Source of the DNA: Escherichia phage CMSTMSU
Sequence record: MH494197.1
Direction: 5' to 3' (one strand)
Length of the DNA stretch: 64,000 nucleotides
The position numbers and the translations under genes are program-made. The notes beneath the pieces are model-generated. The model was not told where the DNA came from. It did no database searches and saw only the letters and a program-made list of their open reading frames with translations. This document shows positions 5,162 to 55,189 of this stretch, one piece after another. Within the stretch, counting starts at the first letter, position 1. Each line of letters begins with the position of its first letter.

Positions 5162-5623
5162 ATGAATGAAGCAGTAGGTGCTATATTTTTATCTAAAAGT
5201 ACTGGACATATGATGTTAAACTTGAGATCAGAAAGAAGTACGTATTCTAACAACTGGGCATTTGTTGGTGGGAAGCTTGAGTATAATGAAACTCCGTTAC
5301 AGGGTCTTATGCGTGAGATTAAAGAAGAGCTAGGTGATTCTATTCCAACGATAATAGATATTATACCATTTGATGTATTCTGTACGAAGAATGGTAAATT
5401 TAAATATTATTCATTTGTCATTGTAGTTGAAAATGAATTCGTACCTACTTTAAATCATGAGAGTTCGGGTTATGCATGGGTTAAGATTGGCTCATGGCCC
5501 AAACCATTACATCCGTGCAAAAACACATTACTTAACACAAATTTAATGAAGGATTTCTATTCATTGTGGGAAAGTATACGACAAGGTACACAGTTTGTCA
5601 ACAGCTTACCATATCGATATTAA
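5162..5623 (+). CDS. NUDIX hydrolase
   Basis: Nudix box GGKLEYNETPLQGLMREIKEELG (GX5EX7REUXEEXGU); RBS AAGGAGG 8 nt upstream. Confidence 0.75.
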   Translation: MNEAVGAIFLSKSTGHMMLNLRSERSTYSNNWAFVGGKLEYNETPLQGLMREIKEELGDSIPTIIDIIPFDVFCTKNGKFKYYSFVIVVENEFVPTLNHESSGYAWVKIGSWPKPLHPCKNTLLNTNLMKDFYSLWESIRQGTQFVNSLPYRY

Positions 5624-36539: not shown

Positions 36540-37004
<465 letters not shown>

Positions 37005-38094
37005 TTAAAAATCTCCTAATATGTTGCCTAATCCGAATTTTGAGCTTGCAGAAGAAACGATGCTTCCTAAACCAATAGCATTTGCACCTCTTGTCACTGC
37101 GGAACCTATGTTTCGGATGGTATCAGGAGTAATGTCACCACGAAGGATATCACCAGCACTACTGATTATATCACTAACTGATGTTCCTGCTCGGATAATT
37201 TTACCAACTGTCGAAATTCCTTTAGTTTTGTCATCAAGTTCACCAAAGTACTTAAAGAATCCACTCACACCAAGACCTTCAGTATCGGTGATGAGTTGTG
37301 CAATTTCCATTGTAGGGACACCAATACTCAAGTACCCTTCAGGACCAAAGTTGTTACACGCTTCATAACGCATAGTCAAAGATAATAGTGCTGGGTCACC
37401 TTCACTTTCCATAGATTTAGTTTCTAATTGTATATCTTCGATGAATACATTTATCATGTTATGAACTGTATAGGTTTCATTATCAATTTCATAGATATTA
37501 ATTGATTTGAAAAGTACTGGTTGTCGTAGTTACCATTGTTCATTACAGAACGACCCCAGTTTCCACCTAAACCATTGAAATTTTCTGGTGTACTGAGTAC
37601 GTCATTTCGGTAAGATTGTGGGTTCTTGTCAAAGAAGTCACCATAGTAGAACTTACGATATGCGTCCATTAAAAGATATCCAGCACCATCGACGGTATCA
37701 TAGAAAACAACATTACTGGGTTTATAAACAATATCACCAGTAACTAAACGTTTTTGTTGTATTGGTTTACGGTTTCAACACTGAAAGAAAAGCTAGGAAG
37801 TGTTACGTCTTTTACAAAGCACGATACATTATTAACATCAAAATCAGTATGTGTATCTGGGAGTTGAGTTTTAATAAAGTTCTTTGCGAACGGGTTAGTA
37901 CAAATTCGATAATAAAACTGTTCTTAAATTTTGGTAAATTATAGAATGAAAAACCCATTTCACCTGCTGTACCAAACACTCGTTGTGCAGCGTTATAATT
38001 TTCAAAAGCTGGATCTCTAATGATGTTGATATTGTCAATAACACCATTAACTATACTAGTTCCAGTACTGACAAATGAATCAAAAAATCACTCA
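37005..38094 (-). CDS. hypothetical tail/baseplate structural protein (frame-broken)
   Basis: ATG 38094 with RBS AAGGAG; ORFs 37454-37669 and 37005-37457 in phase after indels; sits between the tube genes and head-side genes. Confidence 0.4.
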
Positions 38095-38106
38095 TGGGTT
38101 ATCTCC

Positions 38107-38883
38107 TTATAATCCAATGCTACCGAAAACACGGTCAATGATATCTAATCCTTGGTTTACGTTTTCAGGTAAAAGTGAATTTATTCTAGTACTGTACATT
38201 TCTTCGATATTATCGAATTGGATACAATTATCAGGTTTTATTGTAATAACCATTTCAACAGGAGAACTTGAACTATAGTCAAGTGAATCATATGATATAT
38301 TTTGTATAACACATCCTGTTAGTACAAAGTACTCCATAACGCCAGCACTATTGTATGATGATCCACCAATGAACTGATCAACAGCGTTGACTAATCCAGT
38401 ATTGTTGGTAGCGGCAGTTGTTGCATTAACTAATGTGTTTCTTCCCAAGTCTTCTAGTGTATCATCAGAGTTGCGACCATTCAACATCTGAATGACAATT
38501 CCGAACTTATATGAACCATAATCATGGTCAGTTCTGGAAGTAATTCTTCGTTGAAAATCTAATTGTTTCTGTAATTGTCTTGACAAGGCTTTTGCTGATG
38601 CATTACCAACTGAATCACGGATAGTTAAAGTAATTGGGTCCCAATCGTGACTACCAATGTAAGATGTATTTGTTGTAAATTGATATAGTTTATGAGTACT
38701 GAAAGTAACAGTAGGTCTATCAACTTTATCAACATCTAATGCAATGTGATCACGCTCATCTATATCAGTACCGAAATTATATACAATAACACGAAATTTG
38801 TATTTTGCTTTCGGTTGTAACATTGAACGGTTACGTCCTGATGGTAGAGGAACGCCATATTTATTAATCATGTTATTTGCCAT
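38107..38883 (-). CDS. tail tube-like protein (gp19-like), 258 aa
   Basis: Directly downstream of sheath gene; N-terminus KAKYKFRVIVYNFG; C-terminal segment DSLDYSSSSPVEMVITIKPDN resembles the T4 tube C-terminus as I recall it; RBS AAAGAGG. Confidence 0.5.
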   Translation of the reverse strand: MANNMINKYGVPLPSGRNRSMLQPKAKYKFRVIVYNFGTDIDERDHIALDVDKVDRPTVTFSTHKLYQFTTNTSYIGSHDWDPITLTIRDSVGNASAKALSRQLQKQLDFQRRITSRTDHDYGSYKFGIVIQMLNGRNSDDTLEDLGRNTLVNATTAATNNTGLVNAVDQFIGGSSYNSAGVMEYFVLTGCVIQNISYDSLDYSSSSPVEMVITIKPDNCIQFDNIEEMYSTRINSLLPENVNQGLDIIDRVFGSIGL

Positions 38884-38905
38884 AGCAACCTCTTTTATTT
38901 TATAA

Positions 38906-38925
38906 GGTATTATACTTTATTTAGC
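38906..38925 (-). promoter_or_regulatory. late-promoter-like motif GCTAAATAAAGTATAATACC
   Basis: Same core as the fibre-gene motifs; 23-43 nt upstream of ATG 38883. Confidence 0.4.
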
Positions 38926-38955
38926 ATAAAAAGCCCCGAACTAGTTCGAGGCTTA
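38924..38955 (-). terminator. intrinsic terminator between the two tube paralogs
   Basis: Minus-strand hairpin AAGCCTCGAACtagTTCGGGGCTT followed by TTTTATG. Confidence 0.5.
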
Positions 38956-38970
38956 CGTTTAAAAGAAAAA

Positions 38971-39655
38971 TTAATTTTCGTAGAAGTTACTATCTGGTAG
39001 AGTAGTACTACTAATGTTGGTTTGTGCACCACTAATAGAGGTAGCAGTGGATGGGTTACCGAAACCAGTAATTTCATCACCGAACGCTTCACCATTAGGA
39101 CCGAGTTTTGCACAGCCGTCTGGTTGAATTGTCATAGAAATAACTTGTGCTTCACTTGAGGAATAATCCCAGTCACCAAAGTTACTAGATTCGATAAAGC
39201 AGCCTTGACATACCCAAGTACTCAAAGTACCTTCAAAAGGTTAGAAGTGTTTTCACTATTGGAGCCATCTAGCTCTTGAATCCACATTTCAAATTTGAAC
39301 TGGGAATCAGTCATACGAGATTCTTGACTGTAATAGTTAAATTCTTTACGCATTTGGTTATAAAGAGCTTTAGCAGAAGCATTACCAACTGAATCACGGA
39401 AAGCCACATCAATAGTATCCCAAGTATACTTACCTTTATAGTGAGCAGAACTGTTATAACTATGCACAGTGACGTTTTCATGTGATACAGATACAGCACC
39501 AACGGTGTTGGTATCTAGGTAATCATATTGCCATCGTCGTTAGCACCGAAGCCAAAGAAAACAACACGGAATTTATATTTTGCTTTAGGTTGTTTCATAG
39601 AGATACGACCACCGCCAGCGAGCGGAACGCCATATCGATCAAGCATTGTAGCCAT
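38971..39655 (-). CDS. tail tube-like paralog (frame-broken)
   Basis: N-terminus MATMLDRYGVPLAGGGRISMKQPKAKYKFRVV and internal RDSVGNASAKAL both match the 38107-38883 protein; RBS CAGGAGAA. Confidence 0.5.
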
Positions 39656-39997
39656 TTATATTCTCCTGTTATGGAATGACATCTTTATATTATTTATCTA
39701 TTACTTACACTTTTATTGAAGTATCTCATCAACAGGAAACCAATCTATATTCACACAATACAAGTACTTTTTCTTGTTTATGATCTGTATAGTTTACACC
39801 AACCGACCATTTACCATTTGTGTAAACATTGTATTCTCGAATTATACCGACAATGTTCCAAATTTTGTATAAAAGCTTTAAGGATTTTACGGCATCGTCC
39901 TGTGTCGCTACAGTTTTACTTACATCTTGTAATGTTTTTAAGTATTTCTTCCATATTATTCCTGATCGTTGAATTAATAACATAACGTATTTAATTT

Positions 39998-40027
39998 TAA
40001 ACAATAAAAGGAACCAAAAGGTTCCTT
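39998..40027 (-). terminator. intrinsic terminator after sheath gene
   Basis: Minus-strand GGAACCttttGGTTCC followed by TTTTATTGTTT. Confidence 0.5.
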
Positions 40028-40033
40028 AGTGTT

Positions 40034-42688
40034 TTATTGAGTCTTTTCAATACGAATAGGTACGTAAATGAAGTTGATAGACTTAGTAGGTTGGATTGCA
40101 ATATCCATCCAAAGTTCGTTACGGTCAATACGTTCAGAAGTGTTGTTACTTTCGTCACAAACTACTGCGAAGTTGTATAGACCTTGTTGTTGAACGATTT
40201 CAGCTAGAAGCTATTCACTACACCACTGAATTCCTGACGAGTACTTGGAGTATTCAAACGGAATAGGAATGGTTCAGAGATGATTTCTAGTTGACGACGA
40301 ATGTAAACAACCAAACGAGCAACGTTAACACGGCTTAGTGCAGAGGTTTGGTTAGCAGATAGTGTTTTATCACCATATACTAGCAAGCCACGGTTAGGAC
40401 GCATTGCAATTGGGTTAATGTTGTTGGTATACATCACGTCACGTTGACCTTGGTTGTATACTACTGGTTGATATTCACCTTCACTGTTAATGAAACCAGT
40501 ACTTGCAGCGTTGGTTACAACACCACGAGTAGTACCAGCAGGTGGATACCATACAAAACTAACACTATCACTGTACGCATAGGTACGCATTGCAACAGTA
40601 CTGCCGGAACCGCTACTTCTTCACCATCAACGTTAGTACTTAGACACCAGCCCATGTACTGAGCAGCATAATCATATGCAGAAGTACGGCCTACTGAACC
40701 ATTACTTGGTGCGTTATTCGCGTTAGTAGCCCATTCTTGAACTGCACTACCGTTTCCGGTTGGGTTCAAACGAGCAGGTACATCAGTTACAATGAACGCT
40801 GTTTCTTTACGATCAGTGTTTAGGGTAATACATTCATCTAGAGTTTCTACATAACCGGAACACAGATTAGGTTGAAGTCGATGAATTCAGAACGGATATC
40901 ATCATTACCGACGATTACAGCAGCTAGTGCTTCAACGATTAGTTTGCGTTGTGCTGCACGACCGAATAGACCTGCACCATCAAGACTAACACCACTAACA
41001 ACTTGCCATTGACCATTAACCATTTTCTTAACAACACCTTCGGTATTACCGAGGTCAATTGCAAGCATACCATTCTGATAAAGAGCAGCAGAAGCAACTT
41101 GTTCAGGGAAGTTAAAGTCAGCGAAAATCATACCGTTTAGAGTACTTTGGTCAGTATTGTCTAGTTTAACCCACTCACCATCAACGTTACGATAGAAATC
41201 ATAACCATCAATGCCTTGAGATAGAGGGCGTACCCAAATTAGGCGGTCAGCCGATGGCTCATCAACTTGAACGTATTTGTTATCTTCTTGTACTAGATCC
41301 CATTCGTCATTTGCAACATCTGCAATGTACATGGTAACAGTTAGGTTATCTGAATTACCGAAATCATACCAAATAGTACCGTCTTTAGCAATACTACGTG
41401 GAACAGAAGAGCTAACACGCAAGTTATTAACGTTAACTAGAGAATAGTTGTTACTATCTACAGTTAGTTTAGCTAGTTCATTCGCTGCAAAAATATCATC
41501 ACCGCTTTGGGTAACTTTAAAGCTATAACCTTTGGTGTTTGTAACTACCAAACCGCCATTAGATTCACGTTTGAATTTGAATCCATCATTGATAAGATCA
41601 GCACTAACATTTAGATTATCGATGATAGTTTGAGTATTAATTACGCCACCTTGTGGTACTGCAAGTACTTTAACAGATTTGTTTAGGTAAGCGAAAGTCA
41701 AATAACTATTTTCACCAGCTTGCTCAATAACAGTTTCACCTAGTGGTACTGCTGGAGCACTAATTGCTGATAGTTTTGCACTTTGAATATAGAAAGAGAA
41801 ACTCTTACTATCGTCATCAAAACGGCAAGCAATATAACTGTTGTTTAGTACACCACTCTTAGCTTCAACTTCTTGGAAAGAATTACCAGTATATGCTGGA
41901 ACGATATTCCAAACTTGAGTTAGAGATGCATAACGTTTTAGAACAAAGCGAGTGCCAAAATAGTTTGAACCATTTTGAGTATAACCATCACGAATCCATA
42001 CGTTACCTTGTTCAACAGTTGAACCAACTGGAACTTTGTTGATTGGTGATAGATAAGTTTCAACCTGTACTAGACCAGATGCTGCACGTTTGTACATAAG
42101 CATTTGACCATTACTTGGCTTATAACGTAGAACTAGATCATCAACGTTTAGACCAACTAGGCTAACATCGTCAACTTCTTCAGAACTTACGATGGTAACA
42201 GGCTTCAATTGCCAGTCATAGAAGCTGCTTGGGCTGTCTTTCTTAGCAACATAAGCTTCAATTTGTGATTGAGCAGCATCAAACCATAGAGTACCATTTG
42301 GTACTGGGCCAGTTGGTGCAGTTGCACTTGGTGATAGTTGAGCCAAATCGATATCAGCACGAATAACATATGCACGGTTGGTGATACCTAGATAAGAATA
42401 TACAGCATGTAGACCATATTCGTTTAGTTCGTCACCTTGAACAACTGAACCATTGTTCATTTGGAAAATTGGTGAGCCAAATGTATCTAGTGAGCTTTTC
42501 TGTGATGTTAGTAGCTGTAGTTTACCAGCGTTTGCTTTAGTGGTTCCGCAGCGATTGCACTGCTACCGGAACAAGTTTGTCTTCAGCAGTAGCGATTACA
42601 AATAGTGGTACTGTGCGAGCAGCAGCAGTACTCATACTTTCATCAGTTACTGAAATGGAAACGCCGGTGAGAGTAGATCTCCTGCCAT
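40034..42688 (-). CDS. tail sheath protein (about 880 aa; frame-broken)
   Basis: N-terminal region resembles the gp18 family (LLSP..., LHAVYSYLGITNRAYVIRA); C-terminus RVNVARLVVYIRRQLE and NELWMDIAIQPTKSINFIY; RBS GGAGG before ATG 42688. Confidence 0.85.
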
Positions 42689-42782
42689 ATTAAATCCTCC
42701 AAAAATAATTGGTTATTCGAATTATATTCGTATAGTCTTATTTATTGAAGGATTTGAATGTCAAGTCCTAATTGTTTTAATT

Positions 42783-43404
42783 TCACTTATTGGCATAAAT
42801 AACGCTCAATGCTTGTTGGTGCAACGCTTCAATTGTGCTATTATTTTGTACAATGATATCAGGATTATTGATACCAATCCACGCCCATTCAGATTCATGA
42901 ACTGATTCTAACTCAATTGGTTTCATGCTAATATCACCTTTATTAAAAGATGCTGCTAAACCATACCAGTGTGGGAGGGTACGCTGAACTTCAATCACAA
43001 TACCATTTAATGAACGAATCATTTTTAGTTCATTTGGGAATCGACAGTCAGTAATGATAATATTCCTTCAACAGATTGCATTGACTTCTAAACTATGGAC
43101 CCAAATATCATTATGAAAGTACTTACGCAAAATATTAGTACCGTAATTCTGTAATACCCATCGAGGGAAACATCATCACGCCCCAACTTCTCGCACCAGT
43201 ACTGGTCTGGCTCTTCACGGAGTTTACGACTTTCCTTAGTCGAACCCTCAAGCATTTCACGATCCATCCAAAGATAGCAGCAACTGAATCTTTAAGATTA
43301 GTTGCAAATGACATTCTTGTGTAACCATTATTGATAAAAGTTTCACCAAAAGTATCTTTGCCACTACCGATAGTACCGTTAATTGCAATTATTTGTCTTT
43401 CCAT
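42783..43404 (-). CDS. dNMP kinase-like P-loop protein (gp1-like; frame-broken)
   Basis: INGTIGSGKDTFGE ... KDSVAAIFGW resembles the T4 gene 1 N-terminus; RBS GGAGAAG. Confidence 0.5.
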
Positions 43405-43422
43405 AATACTTCTCCATGTATA

Positions 43423-43701
43423 TTATATAAGTACTACTAAATCCTTTCCTACTAAACATTCAAGTAATCCAACTATAAACTCACTCCCATAATATATAGT
43501 AACATAAGTGATGTAGAATGTTTCACCATTATCATCACGACATATACTCGCCCACGCGTTTATTCGATCTCTACCGAAAACATCTACGATTGATTCTTTT
43601 ATAAATTTCCAGTTCTTTTCGGTTGATTCATAATCCAATGTAGGTGCTCCACAAGTATATTTGTTATACATTGCATACACTGCATCTATGTTGTTATTCA
43701 T
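43423..43701 (-). CDS. hypothetical protein, 92 aa
   Basis: ORF only. Confidence 0.35.
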   Translation of the reverse strand: MNNNIDAVYAMYNKYTCGAPTLDYESTEKNWKFIKESIVDVFGRDRINAWASICRDDNGETFYITYVTIYYGSEFIVGLLECLVGKDLVVLI

Positions 43702-43744
43702 GTCAGGTTCCTTTAGATTAATATTATCATTATATCACAACATA

Positions 43745-43778
43745 TAAAAAGACCCCATATAGAGTCTTTTTTGTTTTA
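43745..43778 (-). terminator. hairpin with U-tracts on both strands (likely bidirectional terminator)
   Basis: aaaaAGACcccatatagaGTCTtttttgtttt. Confidence 0.4.
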
Positions 43779-43789
43779 TCCGATAATCA

Positions 43790-44563
43790 TTCCAAGTGGA
43801 TCACCACCATCTTTGTATCTCTTCAACTGTTCTTTAAGCTGTTCTTGAAGTTGTGCACCTTCATTACGTAATGTATCACCATCCATAGAGAATGTACCCT
43901 GTGGTCCGCAATGTAGCAAATTTAGCACGGTTGCGACCCAACATAATCATAGCTTCAGACAATGCCCAGTCACGTAGCCAAGGATAGCTTTGTTGACGTT
44001 GGAATAGCAATGGTTCAGGTATATTATGATATACATGTAATAGCACTTCTTCAGTACCACGAATATCACGGTCAATTATTAGTTTTTGGTCATTGGGTTG
44101 AACTGGAAGATGATTTCTCTACCAAACATACGCCCAACTAATTCTTGGAACTGAAAACTAAAATCATAAGTAGTTAAGTCATAACCACCAGCGTTACGTG
44201 CAGACGTTAAAAGGTAAGTGTTGGTAAATGCGAGTGAAAAAGGGTCTACTGAGTTACCACTTCCAGAACTTAGATAACCGTTACCATAACGATAAATCTG
44301 TTTGACAATTTCAACTTCAGTAGGGAGCATGTATACAGATTGTGAATCATAGAATTTCATGTTCAAGAATGCTTCTTCTTTGAAGCAGAACTCCATGCTC
44401 GGTAGTTTGATACCGCATTATCAATTGCAATTTCCAATTGACCATCAGTAATTTCAACTTCAACTGCACCAGCACCTAACATTTGAGTGATAACATCTTT
44501 CAGTTTTTCACGATGATCAAAGTTTGGAGCATCTGGGTTTCCACCCATATAATCGTAAGACAT
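43790..44563 (-). CDS. hypothetical late protein (frame-broken)
   Basis: ORFs 44363-44593 and 44079-44396; RBS GAGGTG; preceded by a late-type motif. Confidence 0.4.
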
Positions 44564-44581
44564 AAAAAGCACCTCATTAAT

Positions 44582-44601
44582 GTTTATATACATTATTTAG
44601 A
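44582..44601 (-). promoter_or_regulatory. late-promoter-like motif CTAAATAATGTATATAAACA
   Basis: Closest match to the fibre-gene motif CTAAATATATGTATATTAAC. Confidence 0.4.
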
Positions 44602-44770
44602 GGTGCTAATAGTTATTTGGAATTATACAAGCAATACAAGTATACCATAGGAGCAAAATGTTCGGTATCAACTAAGTATATTAACTGGGTGTCATATATA
44701 CCGTACAAATCTCGAAATTTATCTCTGTACAGCAACAATGACTTATTGTTGTGTGGGTCAACCCAGTACT

Positions 44771-45199
44771 TTAAGTCATTGTAGTGCAACGTGTTATTAC
44801 GGTAACCTGATAATATTTGTTTTTAGCCAACTTTTTACAATTACTTAGTAAATGCATGATGGCATCAGCGGTAAATGGTCCCAGTACTAAAACTTCTTCT
44901 CCATTACCGAAGATACTCAATGGTACAGATTGTTGTCCTGCTAGATATTCGATTTGTTCTAATTCGAAAATGTCATCAGCAGCATAAACAACCTGTTCCA
45001 TTTCATTATCTTTAATCCATGACTGCCAATGTTCTTTAAACTGCTTCGCTTCGTATTCCAGTACATAGTTAGGTGATTCTGGATTGTACTGATGTAGCAT
45101 TGTCATACCAGCCATAACCAGTTCTTTTGGTGATGGAGTAGAATCTTTCAGTACTACGATAGCTTGGATAGTTTTAACTTTAACGTTTTGAGCAGCCAT
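44771..45199 (-). CDS. hypothetical protein, 142 aa
   Basis: ORF only. Confidence 0.35.
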   Translation of the reverse strand: MAAQNVKVKTIQAIVVLKDSTPSPKELVMAGMTMLHQYNPESPNYVLEYEAKQFKEHWQSWIKDNEMEQVVYAADDIFELEQIEYLAGQQSVPLSIFGNGEEVLVLGPFTADAIMHLLSNCKKLAKNKYYQVTVITRCTTMT

Positions 45200-45535
45200 T
45201 AGATACCTCTATTATAGAATGATTTTGTTATCAGGAACAATCAGTGCTGGTTTTTCTTCGATAGCCTTGATTGCTTCAACATAAGCTTCAACTAGTGCAG
45301 GGTTTGCATCGCTGATGCTAATGATGTTGGATTTATAAAAATAACGCCTTTTTCAGAACTAATGAATTCTAGGTAATCACGTAGAATGATTTCACCTTGT
45401 TCGTCAGTACCTAGCTGTGCTGGGTAGTTAACTACTACTGCTTCTGGTGCATCATTTTGTAGAATTGCTAGTACTGCCAACGCTGTTGATGTTTAGTAGT
45501 TTAACGGTCATAGTCATTTTGTCAAGTCCTTTTGT

Positions 45536-46012
45536 TTATTTTAGAAAGTATAAGTGTTTTTCTGCATTAACCAGTCTGTGGTCAATGATTTCTTTGATAA
45601 CGTTCCAGTTACCACCGCCTAAATCGGCTCCAATTTTCGGGAAGTGTACATGAACAGTGCGTTCAACGTTACATAAGTAATTGAGTTGTTTGAAAACATC
45701 ATCGATTGCATCATAACTCACATACTTAGAACCGTCATTACCATAGTACTTTTGGGTAATGCAGTTTGCGATAAGCAAATCATCACTTATAGAAGAATAT
45801 GAAATTTGTCCTGTTCTTAGAAATCCCATTTCCTTTTCATATGCTTTATAATCATCATATGCCATCGGATAACGATTTCTTAGTTCTTTTGCAAAACCCG
45901 AACCCATCTTACCCTGTGCATTACAACCATGAGCGATTATATGCAACGCGGTTTGATCATCAGTAACAGTGTTGAACAATTCAAACAAATTACCTAGGTG
46001 TTCATGTATCAT
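45536..46012 (-). CDS. macro domain protein, TARG1/OARD1-like
   Basis: IIAHGCNAQGKMGSGFAKEL and HFPKIGADLGGGNWNVIKEII match the two conserved segments of TARG1-type macro domains as I recall them. Confidence 0.6.
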   Translation of the reverse strand: MIHEHLGNLFELFNTVTDDQTALHIIAHGCNAQGKMGSGFAKELRNRYPMAYDDYKAYEKEMGFLRTGQISYSSISDDLLIANCITQKYYGNDGSKYVSYDAIDDVFKQLNYLCNVERTVHVHFPKIGADLGGGNWNVIKEIIDHRLVNAEKHLYFLK

Positions 46013-46055
46013 TATATTCTCCGAAAGAAAGGACTCTGTAATCAGAGTCCTTAAT

Positions 46056-46319
46056 TTATATTTTATTCTTCTTCACCGAATCGAATTTTTTCAATTCTTT
46101 TCGTTGTTTGCGAGCAATGGTACTTTTGTGAAGTCTATTACCACGTTTTGTGTCTTTCGTAATGTACCATGAATCTTCTGGTGCATCATAATCACAATAA
46201 CCATCTTCTGTAATCGTCCCTAAGAAAGCAGACTTTTTAGGAATGGATGTTTGAGCTTTAGCAGCGAATTGGCCTTTTGCTAATTGTTCACGAAAACTGA
46301 GCATAATAGTATCTCCCAA
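46056..46319 (-). CDS. hypothetical basic protein, 87 aa
   Basis: ORF only; Lys/Arg-rich C-terminus. Confidence 0.3.
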   Translation of the reverse strand: MGDTIMLSFREQLAKGQFAAKAQTSIPKKSAFLGTITEDGYCDYDAPEDSWYITKDTKRGNRLHKSTIARKQRKELKKFDSVKKNKI

Positions 46320-46349
46320 ATTGTTACGAAGAACTTGTGTTCTTCATTA

Positions 46350-46592
46350 TTATTTAGGGTTGCTCGAAACCTCTACTGAAGCGATGAATGCCAAAATATC
46401 ATCTTTACTGAAAGCTTCAATAATATAAGCAACCGCTTTATCGTACTGTTCTTTCTTAGTAGTGTATTCTTTCATTTTGTGAATTTTACGTTGTGCTTTA
46501 ACTTTTGCAGCTTCCATATCAGGCATTTTAAATTCAACACCCAATGTGTCAGCTAAATGTTTTGCACGAGATGATACTTTATCAATATTCAT
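46350..46592 (-). CDS. hypothetical protein, 80 aa
   Basis: ORF only. Confidence 0.3.
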   Translation of the reverse strand: MNIDKVSSRAKHLADTLGVEFKMPDMEAAKVKAQRKIHKMKEYTTKKEQYDKAVAYIIEAFSKDDILAFIASVEVSSNPK

Positions 46593-46609
46593 TAATTCCA
46601 GCGACCTTC

Positions 46610-46849
46610 TTTAAGACCTTCAACGAAACCAGTACAGCCACGGAACGTAAACATCGTTTACGAAAATTTGTGGAACCTGTCGTACTGGCTCACCACATAG
46701 TTCAGATAGTTTAGCACCATCAATACCAGCGGTAACATATCGATAAACTCCATATCAAATTTGTTATTTTCACATACTGCTTTAGCAGTGTCGCAGAATT
46801 TACAACCAGTAGTGCGACCATAAATTTTAACTTTCATTTCTTTTCCTTT
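46610..46849 (-). CDS. glutaredoxin/NrdH-like redoxin (frame-broken)
   Basis: MKVKIYGRTTGCKFCDTAKAV with C-x-x-C; C-terminal part in a shifted frame. Confidence 0.5.
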
Positions 46850-47046
46850 ATTTCGTTGAAACATCGTAACAGCCTTTATTATACTGTTACACATTCGTTC
46901 AGTCAAATACTTTTGACAATCTAGTACATCAATGTACATGAACTTATCCAATTCTGGGTGACTTCTACCATATCTGTTTGTGTAAGTACTTTTACACTCC
47001 AACTCTTCTGGTATAGGCTTATCTTTGGCTGTATAGAAAAATAAAA

Positions 47047-47288
47047 CTAAACGTTTCCCTTTCTATACGATACATCACCAAGAAACAGAAGATCATCTTC
47101 ATCGATTTCATATCCTGTCTCTTCGTAGCATTCACGTACAGCAGCCTCTTTAAATGTTTCTGTACCTTCAGTTTTACCTTTAGGTAAGTCCCAGTGATTC
47201 TGTCCGTGTTGTATGCCCGATAAGTATCTGACCATCACGATAAAATATTATACCACAGCTATAACGCATAATCTTATCTCTTTATCAT
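47047..47288 (-). CDS. NUDIX hydrolase (second copy; frameshift near N-terminus)
   Basis: Nudix box GKTEGTETFKEAAVRECYEETGYEI. Confidence 0.6.
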
Positions 47289-47344
47289 CAAGTGATGTTC
47301 AGATACTAGTAATTATATCAGAAGATGTTAACTTGTCCCAGCTT

Positions 47345-48578
47345 TTAGAACATTTGCTTGATTGCTTCAATACGCAATTCAGCAACAAAATCACGAATCT
47401 CCGATGTTTGGAGTTCACCATCTTTCACTAACTGCTGAATATCAGGTAATTCAACATCAGTATAACGATCATAAACTTTAATAATCAAATCTTCAAGTTC
47501 AGAATCAATTTCTTTGTTCAAAATGAAGTTTTCCAGTACTTTGTAAAGGAAATCTTCACCACCATTGTTTTTGATATTCATATCCAGTAAGATTTGTCCC
47601 ATTTCAACTGGGGTCTTCTTACGGAAGGTTTTAATATCTTCACGGAAACGCTTGATGTAATTATAAACTTCACGTACTTAACTGGAACCTTAATGGAACC
47701 GTTAAGTACTGAATCATTATTTACTTCTTCATTTTCAAGAAGTACTGTCCATAAGAAATATGGTTTATATTCTTCTGTACAATTTACAGAGATAGAATCA
47801 ATTAATTCCAGACGTTTCTTGGTAACTGGAACTGTAGTAAATGCCTTTTCGTAATAACCAAATTGTACCAGAGTTTTGATAAACTTGGAAGGGTTTTCTT
47901 CAGAAAGTGCTTTTCGAATTCAACAAAACACGATCTGGAACTAGATGGTCTAGTTCACCAGTACTAACCATATCTTTACACATTGTCATAGTATCATCAT
48001 GGATTGTAAAGTCGGAGTAACGCGTAGCGAAACGGGCCAAACGTAGAACACGCAATGGATCTTCTTTAAAGTGTTCTGATACATGACGAAGTACTTTGTT
48101 CTTGATATCAGCTTTCCCGCCATAAGGGTCGATGTGAATCTGGAGTACTGGATCATATGCAATACTATTGATTGTGAGATCACGACGATATAGATCTTGT
48201 TCTAGTGTCACACCTTTGTATTCACTTCGAAACCACCATATCCAGTACCAGTTTTACGCTCAGTACGGGCTAATGCGTGTTCATTACCTTCTGGACTTAG
48301 ATATACAGGAAATCCTTACCTACTTGCTTGTATCCAATACTTTGCAAGTATTTAATATCGGATTCGGTAGCACCGACAATAACATAATCTTTGTCTTTTG
48401 CACGGATGCCCATTAAACGGTCACGAACGTAGCCACCAACCAAATACTTTTTCATATCATTCCCCATCAACCAATCACGTAGACGTTCCCAGAAGCCTTT
48501 TGGCTGATATTCTGGATATTCATATTCATCTGTTCCTTGCTCGGAAACACCCCAATCTTCTTCTAATACTGTAATCAC
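47345..48578 (-). CDS. CCA-adding tRNA nucleotidyltransferase family enzyme (frame-broken)
   Basis: [49 protein letters not shown]; preceded in frame by a 40-codon segment that is duplicated at 49587-49706. Confidence 0.7.
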
Positions 48579-48636
48579 AATGCCTCCAATTAAATTAATC
48601 TATCACGTAGACGGTCGTAATATTTTGCATGTATAT

Positions 48637-49011
48637 CTAGTATACACTGAAATGACGGATAGTCAATACTAAATGTATCATCAATGAACATGTACTGATC
48701 AAGTGTTTCAGGACCATTATCATAAACTGGCAATGAACCTTCTTTTTTAACAGTGTGTTCCACATCAAATCACATGTAGTATCGAAAATTGCGTATGCTA
48801 ATTCTATCTTACTTTTTCTAAGTGTAATTAATAATTCATCATTCTCTACTAACGCGTTTCGTATTTTTACACGTACTGTACCCTGAAATTTATTAGTGGT
48901 TAGTACTCTATATTGATTATACGAAATCATGCCTCGTATTTCAGTACTGATTTCTTGTTCAGAAAAGTACCTTAATGTACTGTGGAAATTTGGTATTTTA
49001 CGAATGTCCAT
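48637..49011 (-). CDS. hypothetical protein, member of a tandem paralog set
   Basis: C-terminal frame DQYMFIDDTFSIDYPSF parallels YLQYQFIDDTFGFDFELYN of the 48998-49408 ORF. Confidence 0.35.
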   Translation of the reverse strand: MDIRKIPNFHSTLRYFSEQEISTEIRGMISYNQYRVLTTNKFQGTVRVKIRNALVENDELLITLRKSKIELAYAIFDTTCDLMWNTLLKKKVHCQFMIMVLKHLISTCSLMIHLVLTIRHFSVY

Positions 49012-49408
49012 TCAAATTCCTTTCGTATATATGGTATACGTTCATTATACTATTATATAGTTCAAAGTCAAATCCAAATGTGTCATCAATGAACTGATAT
49101 TGTAGATACTCTTCATATGAAGCATCAATTGGTAATGAGCCAGAACGAATATCATCTGATTTAAAATCGTCAATATATCTTAATGTTATTTCTTCATCAA
49201 CAGTGATATCTATCATCAACGTATCGTCACTGTACCAAAGGTTATGTATACGGATGTAAAGTTTCTTAGCACGATTAAAACTAGATACATTGGTATTGCG
49301 ATGGAGTTTATCTAAGTTGAAGTAAAACCGGCTCGTTTTACTTATGTTTTTCATATGTTCTGCAATCGAATCAATTATATAATCAATGTTGAATGTTCTC
49401 ATAAACAA
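48998..49408 (-). CDS. hypothetical protein, tandem paralog
   Basis: See 48637-49011. Confidence 0.35.
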   Translation of the reverse strand: MFMRTFNIDYIIDSIAEHMKNISKTSRFYFNLDKLHRNTNVSSFNRAKKLYIRIHNLWYSDDTLMIDITVDEEITLRYIDDFKSDDIRSGSLPIDASYEEYLQYQFIDDTFGFDFELYNSIMNVYHIYERNLNGHS

Positions 49409-49508
49409 ATCTCATAGCGGTTTGTGTTTGGATTGTAGCAATAGGTATCATTAATTTTAACACGGTTTAAGTGTTATTGTTGTTCCTACTTCAGTACTGG
49501 GTTCTGCA

Positions 49509-49706
49509 TCACAATAAATCATCACACCAACGCCACAGATTAAAGCTAAGATACAAATAATAGCACATATTATATATTCCATCACTCCCCATCAGCCAAT
49601 CAAAGAGACGTTCCAAGAAGCCATTAGGCTTGTATTCTGGTTCTTTGTTCACGTCGGTTTCTTGTTCATAAACACCCAAATCTTCTTCAAGTATAATTGT
49701 ATTCAT
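49509..49706 (-). CDS. small acidic protein sharing its 40-aa N-terminus with the ORF upstream of the CCA gene
   Basis: MNTIILEEDLGVYEQETDVNKEPEYKPNGFLERLFDWLMG vs [39 protein letters not shown]. Confidence 0.35.
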   Translation of the reverse strand: MNTIILEEDLGVYEQETDVNKEPEYKPNGFLERLFDWLMGSDGIYNMCYYLYLSFNLWRWCDDLL

Positions 49707-50089
49707 TATATATTATACTCTATTATACCATCATCACTTTCACCAGACAACCACTTAATGTAATTTACTTTGTAGAAATTAATCAATGCATAAGTGCTGT
49801 ACTCAATCAACAAGTGATCTCTCAAGAATTCGTCTTGAGCATATCCATCTTCATCCAAATCTGTTGGAATATCAGTTTCTTTGTCTTGAATGTGTAAAGT
49901 TATTGTGTCTTTTGTTATACAAATTTTTATATGATTACAAATAGTAATGATGATTATGCTATATGTTCTATTGAAATATATTGTGAAATCTTCATTAATA
50001 TTATATCTTCGACTTTCTTCATATTTCTGATATGGGTCGAAATGTGATAAATTAACTTTAATTAATGTATTTCTCAACTTACACCTCAA
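49706..50089 (-). CDS. hypothetical protein, 127 aa
   Basis: ORF only; possibly related to the 48637-49408 paralogs. Confidence 0.3.
   Translation of the reverse strand: MRCKLRNTLIKVNLSHFDPYQKYEESRRYNINEDFTIYFNRTYSIIIITICNHIKICITKDTITLHIQDKETDIPTDLDEDGYAQDEFLRDHLLIEYSTYALINFYKVNYIKWLSGESDDGIIEYNI
49722..49755 (-). promoter_or_regulatory. sigma70-like promoter TTGTCT-N17-TGGTATAAT
   Basis: Extended -10 TGGTATAAT on the minus strand immediately upstream of ATG 49706. Confidence 0.35.
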
Positions 50090-50602
50090 TCATATAAAGT
50101 AATTATACATTTTATTGTACAATATAAAAGGTCTTTCACATTATCATAAGTAATATCAGATATATCATGAATTAATGATAACTGAAAAATGAAGCTTCGT
50201 CTATCTCTACTGGGATTATAACATCATAGTCTTCGTCAATTTTATGGGTGTAGTATTTTATGTGATCAGCATTCAACACAAGGTTGTATTTTGTATCATC
50301 TTCAATTAATCCGACAAATTGAGATTTTTGATTAATAAAAATCCAATCCCAACACAACGGTTATCTGGATATGGATAGTACCATCTATTAATAACTAGGT
50401 GTTCAGGTAAGTCCATATCATGTGTTGATATTAAAGATTTTACAATTCCCATCCGGAATAATTCATAATTAAAACTCCATAAGAAAAGGGACAGAATAAT
50501 CTCTGTCCCTTTATTATATCTTACTCTTCGTCTTCAGTCAAGTCTTCTTGAACTGGATGTTCGGGTGGTTACGGCGATGCAATTTGATGCTTTTGTCTTT
50601 AC

Positions 50603-50851
50603 CTAAGACAGTTTCCATTTTTCAAATGAATCACCAATTGCTTTGTATAAATCTGCATCATCGGCGGTGACAATCTTACCACCTGATGTTAAAGTTACGG
50701 AATATTGATTCTTATGCTCTTTCTTCACATGAACACCGATATAAAGTACTGAAGAATCACTAAATTTCGTTAGTACATTTGCTTCTGCATGAATCGCGTC
50801 ATTGATTGCTGGAGTAATATCAACATTACCTTGGATAACTAAATCTAGCAT
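50603..50851 (-). CDS. hypothetical protein, 82 aa
   Basis: ORF only. Confidence 0.3.
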   Translation of the reverse strand: MLDLVIQGNVDITPAINDAIHAEANVLTKFSDSSVLYIGVHVKKEHKNQYSVTLTSGGKIVTADDADLYKAIGDSFEKWKLS

Positions 50852-50865
50852 AATTTACCTACCTT

Positions 50866-51741
50866 TTAGAGTGAGCTTAACAGCAAATCCGCTCTGTTTG
50901 TAACTTGGCGATACCACAAGGAATTCATGATTTCTTTCTTGAACTTCTTAGGGTTATCCATTTTAACACTTTTCCAAAGTTTGTCAAATGTTGCCAACTT
51001 ATCAACGCCCATTGTGTATGACATTTCAAACAGGATACGCTGCTGTTCTTTTGTCAGATTAACTGCATCTTTCTTCTGCATCAATAGTGTAAAGTCCTCG
51101 TAAGTCCTTTTCATATCTTGCATTAAAAGTTTGTTGGCCTGTGCTTTGGTAATCCCGTTTCTGTACTTCATTGCATCAGAATCTTTCTTACCCAAATAAT
51201 GCCCATAACCAATTGTATAATTACCTTTCATGTCCTTATAGGGATGAAATTTAGAATTGTGGAAAGGAACTCCAACTTTCCCACCAAGTAATTTACGTTT
51301 GTTCTTGGACTGAAATTCAATAGAACCTTCAGCTTCTTTGATGTGATCGACAATTTCTGGATCTTTATAATCAAACAGTACAGTCACATCTGGTAACAAT
51401 ACGTTCTTCAAATCCTCTTTGTTGGGATAAAGATACCTGAGAAGTATGAAGAGTTGCATTTAAGTTGATATTCTTCAACAAAATGACATAATCTTCAATC
51501 TGTACATTTTAGGTTTAAATTTCTGTGCAATAGAATAATAACTATCTCCGGTTGAACCGTATAATGTTTCTCGCTGCTTGGAACTGCCTTTGGTACTGAT
51601 ACCTTTAGTAGTTCCTGCTTTTGAATTTACAACTTGTGGTTTTAAATTATGCACCTGACTTTCGTCTAATGATGATGCACGATCACTTTGAGAAAAACCA
51701 TAAAATCCAATCGCAGCGAATAGGGCTGATGAAACTAACAC
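50866..51741 (-). CDS. GH24 (T4-lysozyme-like) muramidase with LysM-like motif and N-terminal hydrophobic segment (one frameshift)
   Basis: GNYTIGYGH and SLWYRQVTNRADLL match T4 lysozyme motifs; LysM-like YGSTGDSYYSIAQKF; N-terminal Gly/Ala-rich LVSSALFAAIGFYGF. Confidence 0.7.
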
Positions 51742-51951
51742 GCCTATGGCAATTTTAGTTTTCAGTGCTTTTTCGCTTTTTCAAAACGCCTCCTTTGTTG
51801 GTTGTTAACAATGAGCAATCACAAAGAGGGCAAAGAGGCCATTTGCAAAAGCCTCATTGGACTTTCTACAGTACTCATTTGTTCTTTGGAACATTTAAGT
51901 AGTATAGCATACTTTTTAGTTATATCAAGACCTATTTACCAAATAACCACA

Positions 51952-52358
51952 TTAATCGTAGTATGTTCTACCAATGGTGATGTGATATTTGAAATATTTA
52001 GATGCCAAACCCAGTTCATTACGAATATGTGCAATGAAATCATCTTCAAACTCTATGATAAAGAATGACCGGTTTCTTATTGTCTTTTACTTCTTCGATG
52101 AAAGGATCGAACTTAATCTTAACTTTCATACCATCGTACTTTTCCAGTACTCTGGATTTGGTGGCACTTCACCACGAACGATACTGACATGTGCTCCCCA
52201 TTGTGGGTCTTTAATATCAATATGTAAGTCAGTTCTGATGAAGTACTGGTAGTATCGAACCAACTGTAATGGAAGTTGCAGTACTAACCAGAAGTCCTTC
52301 TTCTTTTCATAGTGCCACGATCTGGATCATACACCAGAGTTCCTTCCATTTCAATCAT
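51952..52358 (-). CDS. 2H phosphoesterase-like protein, about 135 aa (Acb1/LigT-like candidate; frame-broken; below track cutoff)
   Basis: Two H-x-S/T-x motifs, AHVSIV and YHITIG, about 68 residues apart, assembled from three frames on the minus strand. Confidence 0.4.
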
Positions 52359-52572
52359 ATTTTACCTATAAATTTACATATATATTTTTATTTTCAATAC
52401 GAACATAAGTTTCTAAAACATCTTTCGGAATTTTATTACTTGTTTTGTACCATGTAGTATTATCTACTAAAACAAAAGTTTCACCTTCAGTTTCACCAAA
52501 TGTACTTAGTGCATAAATGAAGTAGTTTGGTGATGCACTACAATAAACATCAGCATTAATTTCAATCATATT

Positions 52573-52704
52573 TTACACCACAATAAAGCTTAATACAACG
52601 AGTGTAATAAACACACCCACAATGGCGGTCATTTCAGGGTTAGCATCGTATGTATAACGGATGCACTTTAGAAAATCTTTACCAAACTTTTTTAGTCCAT
52701 TCAT
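52573..52704 (-). CDS. small membrane protein, 43 aa (below track cutoff)
   Basis: MNGLKKFGKDFLKCIRYTYDANPEMTAIVGVFITLVVLSFIVV with RBS AAAGGAAAA. Confidence 0.3.
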   Translation of the reverse strand: MNGLKKFGKDFLKCIRYTYDANPEMTAIVGVFITLVVLSFIVV

Positions 52705-53456
52705 ATATTTTCCTTTCATTTCTTGTGTAAAGGGTCGGCACTTTCATAATAGATTGTATCATTGTTTCGCTCAATAGTAAAACTCTTTTGACACAACTCT
52801 TCAGCTAAACCCTTAGCATAGTTTAATACATCTCGGTTGAGATATACTTCTTCTTTTGGGAAGCGTGGGTACTGAATAATACGAGCACACATTCCACTTT
52901 CAAGACCACCCGTGTAGATGTATTCACACGGAATCAATTGTACACAAAATCCAAGCTTGAATGCAAACTTTCGTGTGTACTCTCTTGCTGTTTGATATCA
53001 CCAGCAATATGAATATTCCAGTACTGTGTTTCAACTGTACCTTTGTCGATGTATTTCATACTCATCTCCAATTATAGCATAAAAATCCTACTTGCCCAAA
53101 TCTTCTATAATTCTTTTATGATATCATTGTTTTCCAGACATAAAGTACTGAAATTTCTACCTGTTTTTCATTGAGTTCATTAATCTCAAGCATAAGATAA
53201 CCATAAGTGATATCTTGAACCCTACTTCGTTTTACCCTTGAGTACAGTCTGATGGGTACAGATACGCGAGTATTCAAAAGAATTCTGATAAATCATAACG
53301 ATATACGGTATTCATTCTTGTAACGTTTACGACTGTACGATTCTAAACACTGTGGAAACGTCTATCAAACATACTACTTCTTAGTTGAAGTATGATTGGA
53401 TCTAACTTATGCGAGAAATACTTTTGATTATTTTATTAAATCTTGTTACATGTCGT

Positions 53457-53948
53457 TTACGCCATCTCATAATCAAACCTTAAAAATATAATAGGAAAGT
53501 ATTTTGTTTCCGAATCTGAAATACTGTTACAGTAATCTTTCAATTCATCATGGATAACATTCAAATGAATAGTAGGATAGTTCATAGGTTTCTGTACTGG
53601 GCCAGTGGCATATACGCAATCTGTTCTATCCCAACTTACATATTGGGTTGGGTAATTATCTTTAGTACGTTCTTCAATAATAATATTATATTCTGGTGTA
53701 TTGAATACATACATATCACATTGTGAAATGTACTGAACATTAAAATCACCATCAGTTAGATGGATCATGTTCCCATCGCAATATAAGCATGATGGTTCAG
53801 TGTATCCTAAAATTGAAGATAAAGTTCTGAAGTTTGCTCGGACCCAAATATACCAAATTCGTGTGTAAACAAATATCAATGAAACGTTTGAAGACTTCAG
53901 TTTCGTTATGCATATAGATACCTTAAAAGACCCACATAGTGAGGTCAA
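53457..53948 (-). CDS. hypothetical protein (probably frame-broken at N-terminus)
   Basis: ORF only. Confidence 0.3.
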   Translation of the reverse strand: MTSLCGSFKVSICITKLKSSNVSLIFVYTRIWYIWVRANFRTLSSILGYTEPSCLYCDGNMIHLTDGDFNVQYISQCDMYVFNTPEYNIIIEERTKDNYPTQYVSWDRTDCVYATGPVQKPMNYPTIHLNVIHDELKDYCNSISDSETKYFPIIFLRFDYEMA

Positions 53949-53965
53949 ACACTTTTAAACGTTAT

Positions 53966-54185
53966 CATCATCCAAAGCTTCACGGTAAACATAATAAACA
54001 TGCGTACCTAGAAGAACAATGAGTACAATGAATACTAACCAGAATGGTACAAAATGCAGTACAAGTGCAAATGCCATTACGGTAATAACCATCACTACTG
54101 AACTAAAAATAAGACTAGTCGCTTTTTAAATCCAGATAGTACATCATTCAAAACGCGTTTCATAAATGAATCAACCATTTTATTC
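53966..54185 (-). CDS. small two-TM membrane protein, about 73 aa (frame-broken)
   Basis: MVDSFMKRVLNDVLSGFKK then VVMVITVMAFALVLHFVPFWLVFIVLIVLLG; RBS AGGA overlapping the tdk 3' end. Confidence 0.3.
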
Positions 54186-54750
54186 CTCATATAATCCATA
54201 TAGCAAGTTCTGCATAGACTCTTGTATGATTCATCACCACCAATAAAGACTTTATCAGTACTTTCAACTATACGGGCATTCATAGTGGCTTCTTTGCCAC
54301 ACTTCTGATTCTCACACACGTTCTTAAGTTCATGTATGTCATCAGCTATTTCGAACAGTCTTTGTGAACCTTCAAAAGATTGATTCAAAATCTGTTCGTA
54401 TTCCATAACAGGAAACATCAACACCATAATTATCTGCTATATCAGCTAAATGGTCAATTTGTTCTCTGTTTAAAATTGACATTCATCAACATAGATACTG
54501 TTAATGTCAACGTCATTTTTGAGTGTTTCTTTAACTTTAAGAAGAACACTAATGTCATTTTTGGAATTACTTCAGCCACAGCTTCGATGCCAATTCTTGA
54601 AGTAATCTTTCCTGTTCCATAACGATCATCAAGTGCACTGGTTAAGTAAATTACCTTCATTCCATTTTTCTTATGGTTATATGCTTTTTGTAAAAGATGA
54701 GTACTTTTACCACTAGACATACTACCATAGTAATATACTAATTTACCCAT
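54095..54750 (-). CDS. tdk: thymidine kinase (frame-broken; 3' limit uncertain)
   Basis: P-loop YYYGSMSSGKST, DDRYGTGKITSRIG, C-terminal Cys cluster CGKEA...C..C; RBS AAGGA before ATG 54750. Confidence 0.8.
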
Positions 54751-55189
54751 TTTAATCCTTAAGTACGTGTGCTTACATTTTAATCTATTACCATAGGATG
54801 AAATTGGGATATTGAACATTTCTATTTTACCCTCTTTTAAAAGACGTAAAATATCTGGATCGTTTTGGTTTGTACACAATGAAGACCATTGACTTGAATT
54901 TCTAAACCATTCTTCAGAAATTCATAAATCTTCTGTCTACGCTTCCCACCGAAACTTTCATTTCGGATAACATCTCTTAGGTCTTTATATTCTTGTTTTA
55001 ATTTCCTGTCAAAAGTGTTCCATCTTTCTTTCTGATTTCTTCAATACACTTATATTGAGTTTGTCCTCTAAGAGCCATATTTGACCTCGTTGGGATATTT
55101 CTTCATTAACTCATGTAAACGTTGAATTTCCTGATTTTTCTTATGTTCTTCATCATACTTCTTAGAAAGATTCTTTCTTGTATTTGTTT

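Follow-up and report, generated by a model that had tools for sequence, protein, structure and literature searches.

A macrodomain protein of Escherichia phage CMSTMSU as a candidate eraser of DarT2-made ADP-ribosylation

Known macrodomain erasers and the phage homologue

TARG1-like macrodomain enzymes in general remove ADP-ribose linked to thymidine (T-ADPr) and to uracil (U-ADPr), and reversal of T-ADPr has been described as an activity that unifies the class. Here we consider a member of this class that is encoded in a 64,000-nucleotide stretch of DNA from Escherichia phage CMSTMSU (sequence record MH494197.1; termed the window), and compare it with the described systems that it most resembles. 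One of these is SCO6735 of Streptomyces coelicolor, which strips T-ADPr from single-stranded DNA (ssDNA) and rescues E. coli from DarT (PMC9411070). Gln85 of SCO6735 is proposed to position the distal ribose in a water-mediated mechanism, with Asn27 holding the glutamine in place. The Q85A substitution abolishes cleavage of DarT-made T-ADPr and N27S nearly does so, although the catalytically dead Q85A protein still inhibits DarT by interaction (PMC9411070). SCO6735, DarG and human TARG1 also reverse U-ADPr on single-stranded RNA (PMC13036486). Furthermore, SCO6735 and TARG1 are active on proteins ADP-ribosylated at Glu or Asp, and SCO6735 is inactive on nucleic-acid ADP-ribose linked through a 5′-phosphate or a 2′-OH.

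Two phage macrodomain proteins, both named AdfM, bear on the function considered here. Gp104 of phage PhiKZ removes DarT2-made ADP-ribose from ssDNA, rescues cells from DarT2 toxicity and is needed for growth of chimalliviruses on hosts that carry DarTG2 (PMC13309987). Phage T4 stays resistant to DarTG2 when AdfA and AdfN are missing. In a transposon screen, tk.4 was the single T4 gene that became conditionally essential on DarTG2, and cleanly knocking the gene out sensitised the phage (bioRxiv 10.1101/2025.11.20.689424). AdfB of phage ICP1 is not a macrodomain.

We consider it probable that the CMSTMSU gene encodes an orphan eraser of the AdfM type, which would remove the ADP-ribose that DarT2 attaches to thymidine in phage ssDNA. 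The initial annotation of the window had raised the idea that this gene could reverse host defences such as DarT, and experimental precedent in T4 Tk.4, PhiKZ gp104 and SCO6735 supports it by analogy. For the CMSTMSU protein itself, the analysis establishes fold and class, conserved active-site residues and homology to AdfM. Hydrolysis of T-ADPr rests on SCO6735 and gp104 and protection against DarTG2 on Tk.4 and gp104, and by analogy with these three proteins the phage protein would do the same.

In infected DarTG2-positive E. coli, freed DarT2 would use NAD+ to place ADP-ribose on thymidine N3 at TNTC motifs of phage ssDNA, and these marks would block phage replication and packaging. The macrodomain would grip the ADP-ribose by its two glycine-rich loops, NAQGKMGSG (residues 31–39) and GADLGGG (residues 128–134), while Asn31 and Gln87 would position the distal ribose. 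Hydrolysis of the thymine–ribose bond would then yield free ADP-ribose and restored DNA.

Class and active site

The initial annotation had described an open reading frame (ORF) of 158 codons for amino acids with two conserved macro segments, and had named a profile search against macro-domain families as one check. The ORF is intact, both segments (HGCNAQGKMGSGFAKEL and PKIGADLGGGNW) are present exactly, and the profile search returned PHROG 335 with E = 2.9e-46, a family that is also matched by T4 Tk.4 (1.3e-65) and PhiKZ gp104 (8.2e-43). The Pfam model for the domain (PF01661, Macro) scored 20.2 bits against a gathering cutoff of 22 (E = 5.7e-4) in a match that spans profile positions 2–116 of 118, and about half of the listed homologues carry a precomputed hit to this model. 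The sub-threshold score reflects the sensitivity of the model and is not evidence against membership. A call from Pfam alone would stay marginal; the assignment is settled by the PHROG, PDB profile and structure searches.

The closest solved structures, at E = 1e-15 to 3e-11 and template modelling (TM) scores of 0.76–0.83, are BT1257 of Bacteroides (PDB 2FG1 and 2AFC; phmmer E = 1.2e-15) and SCO6735 (PDB 5E3B; 3.3e-11), and phmmer also matched yeast Poa1p and DarG in the PDB. A family profile of 46 sequences, searched against the PDB, matched macrodomains: BT1257 (1.8e-26), SCO6735 (4.9e-20), Poa1p (5.7e-15), DarG (about 1e-12), TARG1 (6e-11) and ALC1 (0.01). Everything found in that search at E < 0.05 was ALC1/TARG1-like, and MacroD-type and viral X-domains lay above 0.05. 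The AlphaFold2 model has a predicted local distance difference test score (pLDDT) of 94 and a predicted TM score of 0.90, and only the loop of residues 91–100 is lower, at a pLDDT of 79. Foldseek matched this model to many macrodomain structures with probability 1.00, ranking BT1257 first (query-normalised TM 0.82), followed by Poa1p (E = 4.6e-10), SCO6735, DarG and TARG1 at 0.69–0.76 (0.73–0.76 for the last three); among viral models (BFVD) the top match was a tk.4 protein (TM 0.82). The sole matches in the defence library and in NCBIfam were DarG models (PADLOC, 1.6e-10; NF048014, 4.5e-8), both far below the full-length cutoffs; NF048014, for example, gave 32.7 bits against a cutoff of 250 over profile positions 20–139 of 338.

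The protein is thus almost certainly an ADP-ribose-binding macrodomain of the TARG1-like class, and its placement by the initial annotation in one clade with DarG stands, since every significant hit among solved structures, DarG included, is ALC1/TARG1-like. The accompanying label 'TARG1/OARD1-type' is right for the class and wrong for the catalytic subtype. Human TARG1/OARD1 (PDB 4J5S) resembles the phage protein in class and size (query-normalised TM 0.73–0.76; 16–20% identity). However, hhalign with a human TARG1 query, whose numbering reproduces K84 and D125, places Lys84 on Gln87 and Asp125 on Gly132, so the TARG1 dyad is absent. Lys88 and Asp130 were considered as a relocated dyad of the TARG1 kind and rejected, since position 88 is not conserved (E in 49 sequences, K in 21, Q in 15, others in the remainder). 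The residue set is instead the Gln-type set of SCO6735 and BT1257, and the subtype should be labelled SCO6735-like or AdfM-like.

In both SCO6735 and BT1257, as in the phage protein, a Gln replaces the catalytic Lys, equivalents of the active-site Asn and His are present, and a long mobile loop follows. In the phmmer alignment His28, Asn31 and Gln87 correspond to His24, Asn27 and Gln85 of SCO6735. Across 119 aligned sequences (the query and 118 homologues) Gln87, Asn31, Gly128 and Pro125 are invariant, and His28 is kept in all but one. An extended mobile loop after the Gln, about five residues longer than in TARG1 and DarG, is said to define the SCO6735 subclass; 12 residues separate Gln87 from Tyr100, compared with 13–14 in SCO6735 and BT1257 and 8 in TARG1 and Tk.4, and hhalign opens a four-residue gap in TARG1 within this loop. 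As judged from these alignments, the phage protein is a member of the Gln-type SCO6735/BT1257 subclass of ALC1-like macrodomains. It departs from SCO6735 at three positions, with Asp130 for Gly128, Gly29 for Val25 and Ser38 for Lys34. The first two fall on residues that otherwise mark the subclass (Gly128 and Val or Ile at 25); Gly29 is probably tolerable because the role of Val25 is backbone-mediated. SCO6735 is also a cellular gene, induced by DNA damage, and not a phage gene.

The DarG macrodomain (PDB 5M31, 5M3E and 5M3I; NF048014) shares with the phage protein its class and its proposed substrate, thymidine-N3-linked ADP-ribose on ssDNA. The phage protein differs in being a single domain that has Gln87 in place of the catalytic Lys of DarG (K80 in the Taq protein), and in lacking both a C-terminal DarT-binding domain and a neighbouring darT gene. 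Yeast Poa1p (PDB 6LFQ–6LFU) is of the same class but has a large insertion before loop 2. Its active-site residues His23, Ser30 and Phe152, which are mutated in PDB entries 6LFS, 6LFT and 6LFU, align with His28, Lys35 and Gly132; of these only the His is conserved.

Resemblance to the two AdfM proteins is of different kinds. T4 Tk.4 is a single-domain protein of about 155 amino acids with the HGCN, TQ and P-x-IGA-x-x-G-x-GNW motifs (HGCN, LYTQ and PRIGAGIGKGNW in its own sequence), and is likewise Gln-type, with Q84 aligned to Gln87. The TQ motif of Tk.4 was taken from hhalign because MAFFT misregisters it by two columns. The family profile aligned to Tk.4 with a probability of 99.6% (E = 1.7e-23), and BLASTP gave 29% identity (E = 5e-12). 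Tk.4 differs in having Gly at the position of Asp130 and a post-Gln loop about four residues shorter, and knockout genetics are known for it. PhiKZ gp104 (hhalign probability 98.1%) is, like the CMSTMSU protein, an orphan macrodomain of a jumbo phage, and its Asn23, which aligns with Asn31, is needed for full activity. In contrast to the CMSTMSU protein, gp104 is Lys-type (FPTK, as in DarG) and is imported into the phage nucleus, and the two are 21% identical; CMSTMSU, unlike PhiKZ, is not a chimallivirus.

Relatives were detected by tblastn in 1,978 of 50,697 phage records (about 4%), among them T-even, Felix O1-like and several other myovirus groups, and given this spread, much natural resistance to DarTG2 may be owed to this one family. 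If the proposed function is true, AdfM counter-defence would reach a third large group of phages besides the T-evens and the nucleus-forming chimalliviruses, namely the Rak2/121Q-like jumbo coliphages, and the bacterial Gln-type mechanism of SCO6735 would be linked to phage biology. It would also help to predict which therapeutic jumbo phages plate on clinical E. coli that carry DarTG2. The idea is not conceptually new: orphan antitoxin-like erasers (AdfN and AdfM) are established, and a macro-domain annotation of the gene already exists.

The Asp130 variant and alternative functions

The only unusual feature of the protein is a variant of the phosphate-binding loops, in which Asp130 is accompanied by Lys35 in loop 1. 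Asp130 aligns with Gly128 of SCO6735 and Gly123 of TARG1, and the residue is Gly in SCO6735, BT1257, TARG1 and DarG. In SCO6735 an acidic residue at this site (G128E) removes most of the activity, an effect reported to come from a stiffened loop and from repulsion of DNA (PMC9411070). Among the 119 sequences, position 130 is occupied by G in 54, D in 44, A in 9, V in 7 and E in 3. Biochemically active PhiKZ AdfM carries Ala there. Of the 47 sequences with an acidic residue at position 130, 46 have Lys or Arg at position 35, where Val predominates in the Gly130 group. His5, His121 and His153 also track the acidic clade. The pairing suggests that a salt bridge links the two ADP-ribose-binding loops in compensation, although common descent confounds the correlation and may be all that lies behind it. 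The Asp130 clade makes up about 40% of close homologues, mostly on contigs of jumbo-phage size. That it is a functionally diverged branch of the AdfM/SCO6735 proteins, either retuned in substrate by an acidic residue salt-bridged to loop 1 or converted from a DNA eraser into a protein that binds tightly or inhibits, is in our estimate unlikely. Substrates of a retuned enzyme might be uracil-ADP-ribosylated RNA, another base or linkage made by a yet-unknown ADP-ribosylating defence of E. coli, or an ADP-ribose-derived signal.

Several points weigh against erasure of DarT2 marks as the function of the CMSTMSU protein. The chief caveat is Asp130 itself, at the very site where an acidic residue cripples SCO6735. 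Identity to T4 AdfM is only 29%, and the evidence on Tk.4 comes from a preprint that infers the enzymatic mechanism (bioRxiv 10.1101/2025.11.20.689424). In the search of the PDB with the family profile, Poa1p, an ADP-ribose-1″-phosphate (Appr-1″-p) phosphatase, is about as similar as DarG. The gene lies among small genes of unknown function, between the neck and sheath genes and those of nucleotide and tRNA metabolism, and not in a recognisable anti-defence cluster. Finally, the related phage 121Q encodes a Sir2 protein (gp476), a Nudix protein (gp477), an RNA ligase (gp438) and a polynucleotide kinase (gp443) that could yield ADP-ribose by-products. In favour of erasure of host-made marks, no ADP-ribosyltransferase (ART), KptA or second macro gene that would indicate an internal substrate was found in 121Q. 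Specifically, the RefSeq annotation of 121Q over 1–340 kb of its 348.5 kb holds no ART, KptA, NADAR or 2H enzyme, and neither annotation nor tblastn with the macro protein, Tk.4, gp104 and TARG1 revealed a second macro gene. These absences are weak evidence because most of the genes are called hypothetical.

A housekeeping role is the first alternative, in which the protein would process soluble ADP-ribose derivatives from RNA-repair or NAD-consuming enzymes of the phage, acting as a Poa1p-like ADP-ribose-1″-phosphate phosphatase or as an O-acyl-ADP-ribose deacylase downstream of the phage Sir2. Both the profile and the Foldseek searches show Poa1p to be clearly related, a role of this kind matches the historical annotations 'Appr-1-p processing' and 'phosphatase', and a CCA-adding enzyme and a Nudix gene are among the nearby genes. 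Phage Sir2 and Nudix sets such as that of 121Q have been proposed to act like KptA in NAD-dependent RNA repair and to produce ADPr>P (PMC9503650), which keeps this explanation alive. However, neither KptA/Tpt1 nor a 2H enzyme is annotated in 121Q over the range given above, the Sir2, RNA ligase and kinase genes lie 38–57 kb from the macro gene and outside the window, and the phage protein is closer to SCO6735 and BT1257 than to Poa1p, whose Ser30 and Phe152 (replaced in the S30A and F152A structures) it does not conserve. T4 also has an RNA ligase and a polynucleotide kinase, and yet Tk.4 was the single hit in the screen on DarTG2 (bioRxiv 10.1101/2025.11.20.689424). On balance we hold the housekeeping role to be rather improbable.

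Alternatively, the protein might erase other marks, such as U-ADPr on RNA, Glu- or Asp-linked ADP-ribose that other host toxins place on proteins, or the marks of an unrecognised ADP-ribosyltransferase of the phage, and the breadth of SCO6735, DarG and TARG1 set out above would allow for the first two. As for the third, the phAPEC6 account states that about 83% of the genes in such jumbo phages have no known function, among which an ART could hide. However, the annotation of 121Q lists no ART over 340 kb, and we know of no E. coli defence system that ADP-ribosylates uracil. SCO6735 does not act on the 5′-phosphate- and 2′-OH-linked forms on RNA, and the adenine-linked ADP-ribose made by CmdT has been described as irreversible (PMC13036486). 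We regard erasure of other marks as quite unlikely.

The least probable of these explanations is a weakly catalytic or non-catalytic binder that may have lost DNA de-ADP-ribosylation through Asp130 and would bind DarT or, like a sponge, free ADP-ribose-derived signals. It draws on the effect of G128E, on the interaction of SCO6735 Q85A with DarT and on the coherence of the acidic clade (D or E at 130 in 47 of the 119 sequences), but we think it very unlikely. Gln87, Asn31, Gly128 and Pro125 are invariant in that clade, which argues for retained catalysis, and PhiKZ AdfM is active with Ala rather than Gly at this position. The near-constant partner at position 35 would speak less for decay than for a compensating salt bridge.

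The locus and its surroundings

Over 6 kb, the window matches Escherichia phage fEgEco12 at 99.2% identity, and it is 85–86% identical to 121Q and PBECO4, which are Rak2-like jumbo coliphages of about 350 kb in the genus Asteriusvirus. The macro protein is 100% identical to fEgEco12 g289, annotated 'phosphatase', and 89.9% identical to 121Q gp544. The existence of the macro domain is already on record, because RefSeq labels gp544 'macro domain-containing protein / Appr-1-p processing domain protein'; the gene goes unmentioned in the genome paper on fEgEco12. Among jumbo phages, 56% encode one or more macro domains (PMC9503650). With the gene annotated, such domains common in jumbo phages and the counter-defence concept published, the finding is less novel than the initial annotation assumed.

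Table 1. Coordinates of the macrodomain gene, its sequence elements and other features of the window.
Feature	Position	Strand	Remarks
Macrodomain gene	45536..46012	minus	ATG-started ORF, 158 amino acids, stop codon included; orthologue of fEgEco12 g289 and 121Q gp544
Loop-1 motif HGCNAQGKMGSGFAKEL	45881..45931	minus	residues 28–44; holds His28, Asn31 and Lys35
Lys35 codon	45908..45910	minus	
ITQ motif and long flexible mobile loop	45713..45760	minus	residues 85–100; contains Gln87
Phosphate-binding loop-2 motif PKIGADLGGGNW	45605..45640	minus	residues 125–136; read from the sequence
Asp130 codon	45623..45625	minus	
Shine-Dalgarno GGAG	46020..46023	minus	6 nt upstream of the macro ATG; context ...GGAGAATATAATG
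Inverted repeat AAGGACTCTG / CAGAGTCCTT	46029..46052		perfect 10-bp stem, 4-nt loop; from the scan for terminator-like repeats
NUDIX gene adjoining glutaredoxin gene	46841..47235	minus	orthologue of 121Q gp540 and fEgEco12 g285
Intact MutT-like NUDIX gene	5162..5620	plus	about 40 kb from the macro gene
Orthologue of fEgEco12 g291	~44771..45199	minus	labelled 'aminoacyl-tRNA hydrolase' in fEgEco12
Tandem paralogues, fEgEco12 g282 and g281	~48630..49440	minus	140 and 135 amino acids

The inverted repeat lies between the macro gene and a co-oriented small ORF upstream of it, immediately ahead of the ribosome binding site, and is followed on the coding (minus) strand by TCTTTC. The hairpin could be a terminator, an attenuator or an element of RNA stability.

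Many genes around the macro gene look broken in this record. In the 18 kb from 37000 to 55000, comparison with fEgEco12 gave 109 indels, all of them single-base deletions in the window, and nearly all fall in A/T runs of at least five, in G/C runs of three to four or at CCWGG motifs. Errors of this kind mark an unpolished nanopore assembly of Dcm-methylated DNA and are not biological; the pattern probably holds across the whole window. The deletions introduce false frameshifts into the neck, tail sheath, glutaredoxin, NUDIX and CCA-enzyme genes, among others, and account for their fragmented look; pseudogenisation of the neck, glutaredoxin, Nudix and CCA genes is ruled out by this error pattern. 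Relative to fEgEco12, the macro ORF is free of indels and mismatches. Basecalling-type errors at CCAGG or CCTGG include those at 40606, 40857, 42568, 42617, 46642, 49464, 52071, 53307 and 53840. Their clustering at Dcm sites indicates that the sequenced phage DNA bore 5-methylcytosine at CCWGG, which implies host Dcm or a phage cytosine methyltransferase as the source; gp91 of 121Q is annotated as a DNA-cytosine methyltransferase.

According to Pfam and PHROGs, the neighbours of the macro gene are glutaredoxin, NUDIX, a PolyA_pol/CCA-adding enzyme and small proteins of PHROGs of unknown function, and no functional link to the macro gene appears among them. The initial annotation had placed two NUDIX hydrolases and a glutaredoxin nearby. 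One NUDIX gene does adjoin the glutaredoxin gene, but the apparent second is part of the same gene, split by a one-nucleotide deletion at 47057 into overlapping frames (46841..47062 and 47023..47235).

Some neighbouring and related genes deserve separate comment. The 'aminoacyl-tRNA hydrolase' label of fEgEco12 g291 looks unreliable: Pfam does not support it, and the protein's single match is PHROG 14786, whose function is unknown. Immediately beyond the CCA-enzyme gene, as seen from the macro gene, g282 and g281 form a tandem duplication whose two products both belong to PHROG 20693, also of unknown function. In 121Q (NC_025447.1) the Sir2-like gp476 gene abuts that of Nudix gp477 at 220175..221475, with a one-base overlap at 220924, and the RNA ligase and polynucleotide kinase genes lie 15–18 kb upstream of this pair. 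At 278169..278762 of the same genome, which corresponds to about 27 kb in the window, gp567 is a 197-amino-acid 'DprA-like DNA recombination-mediator protein' encoded beside thymidylate synthase; its size and context suggest that this is perhaps not DprA but a SLOG/LOG-like nucleotide-processing domain.

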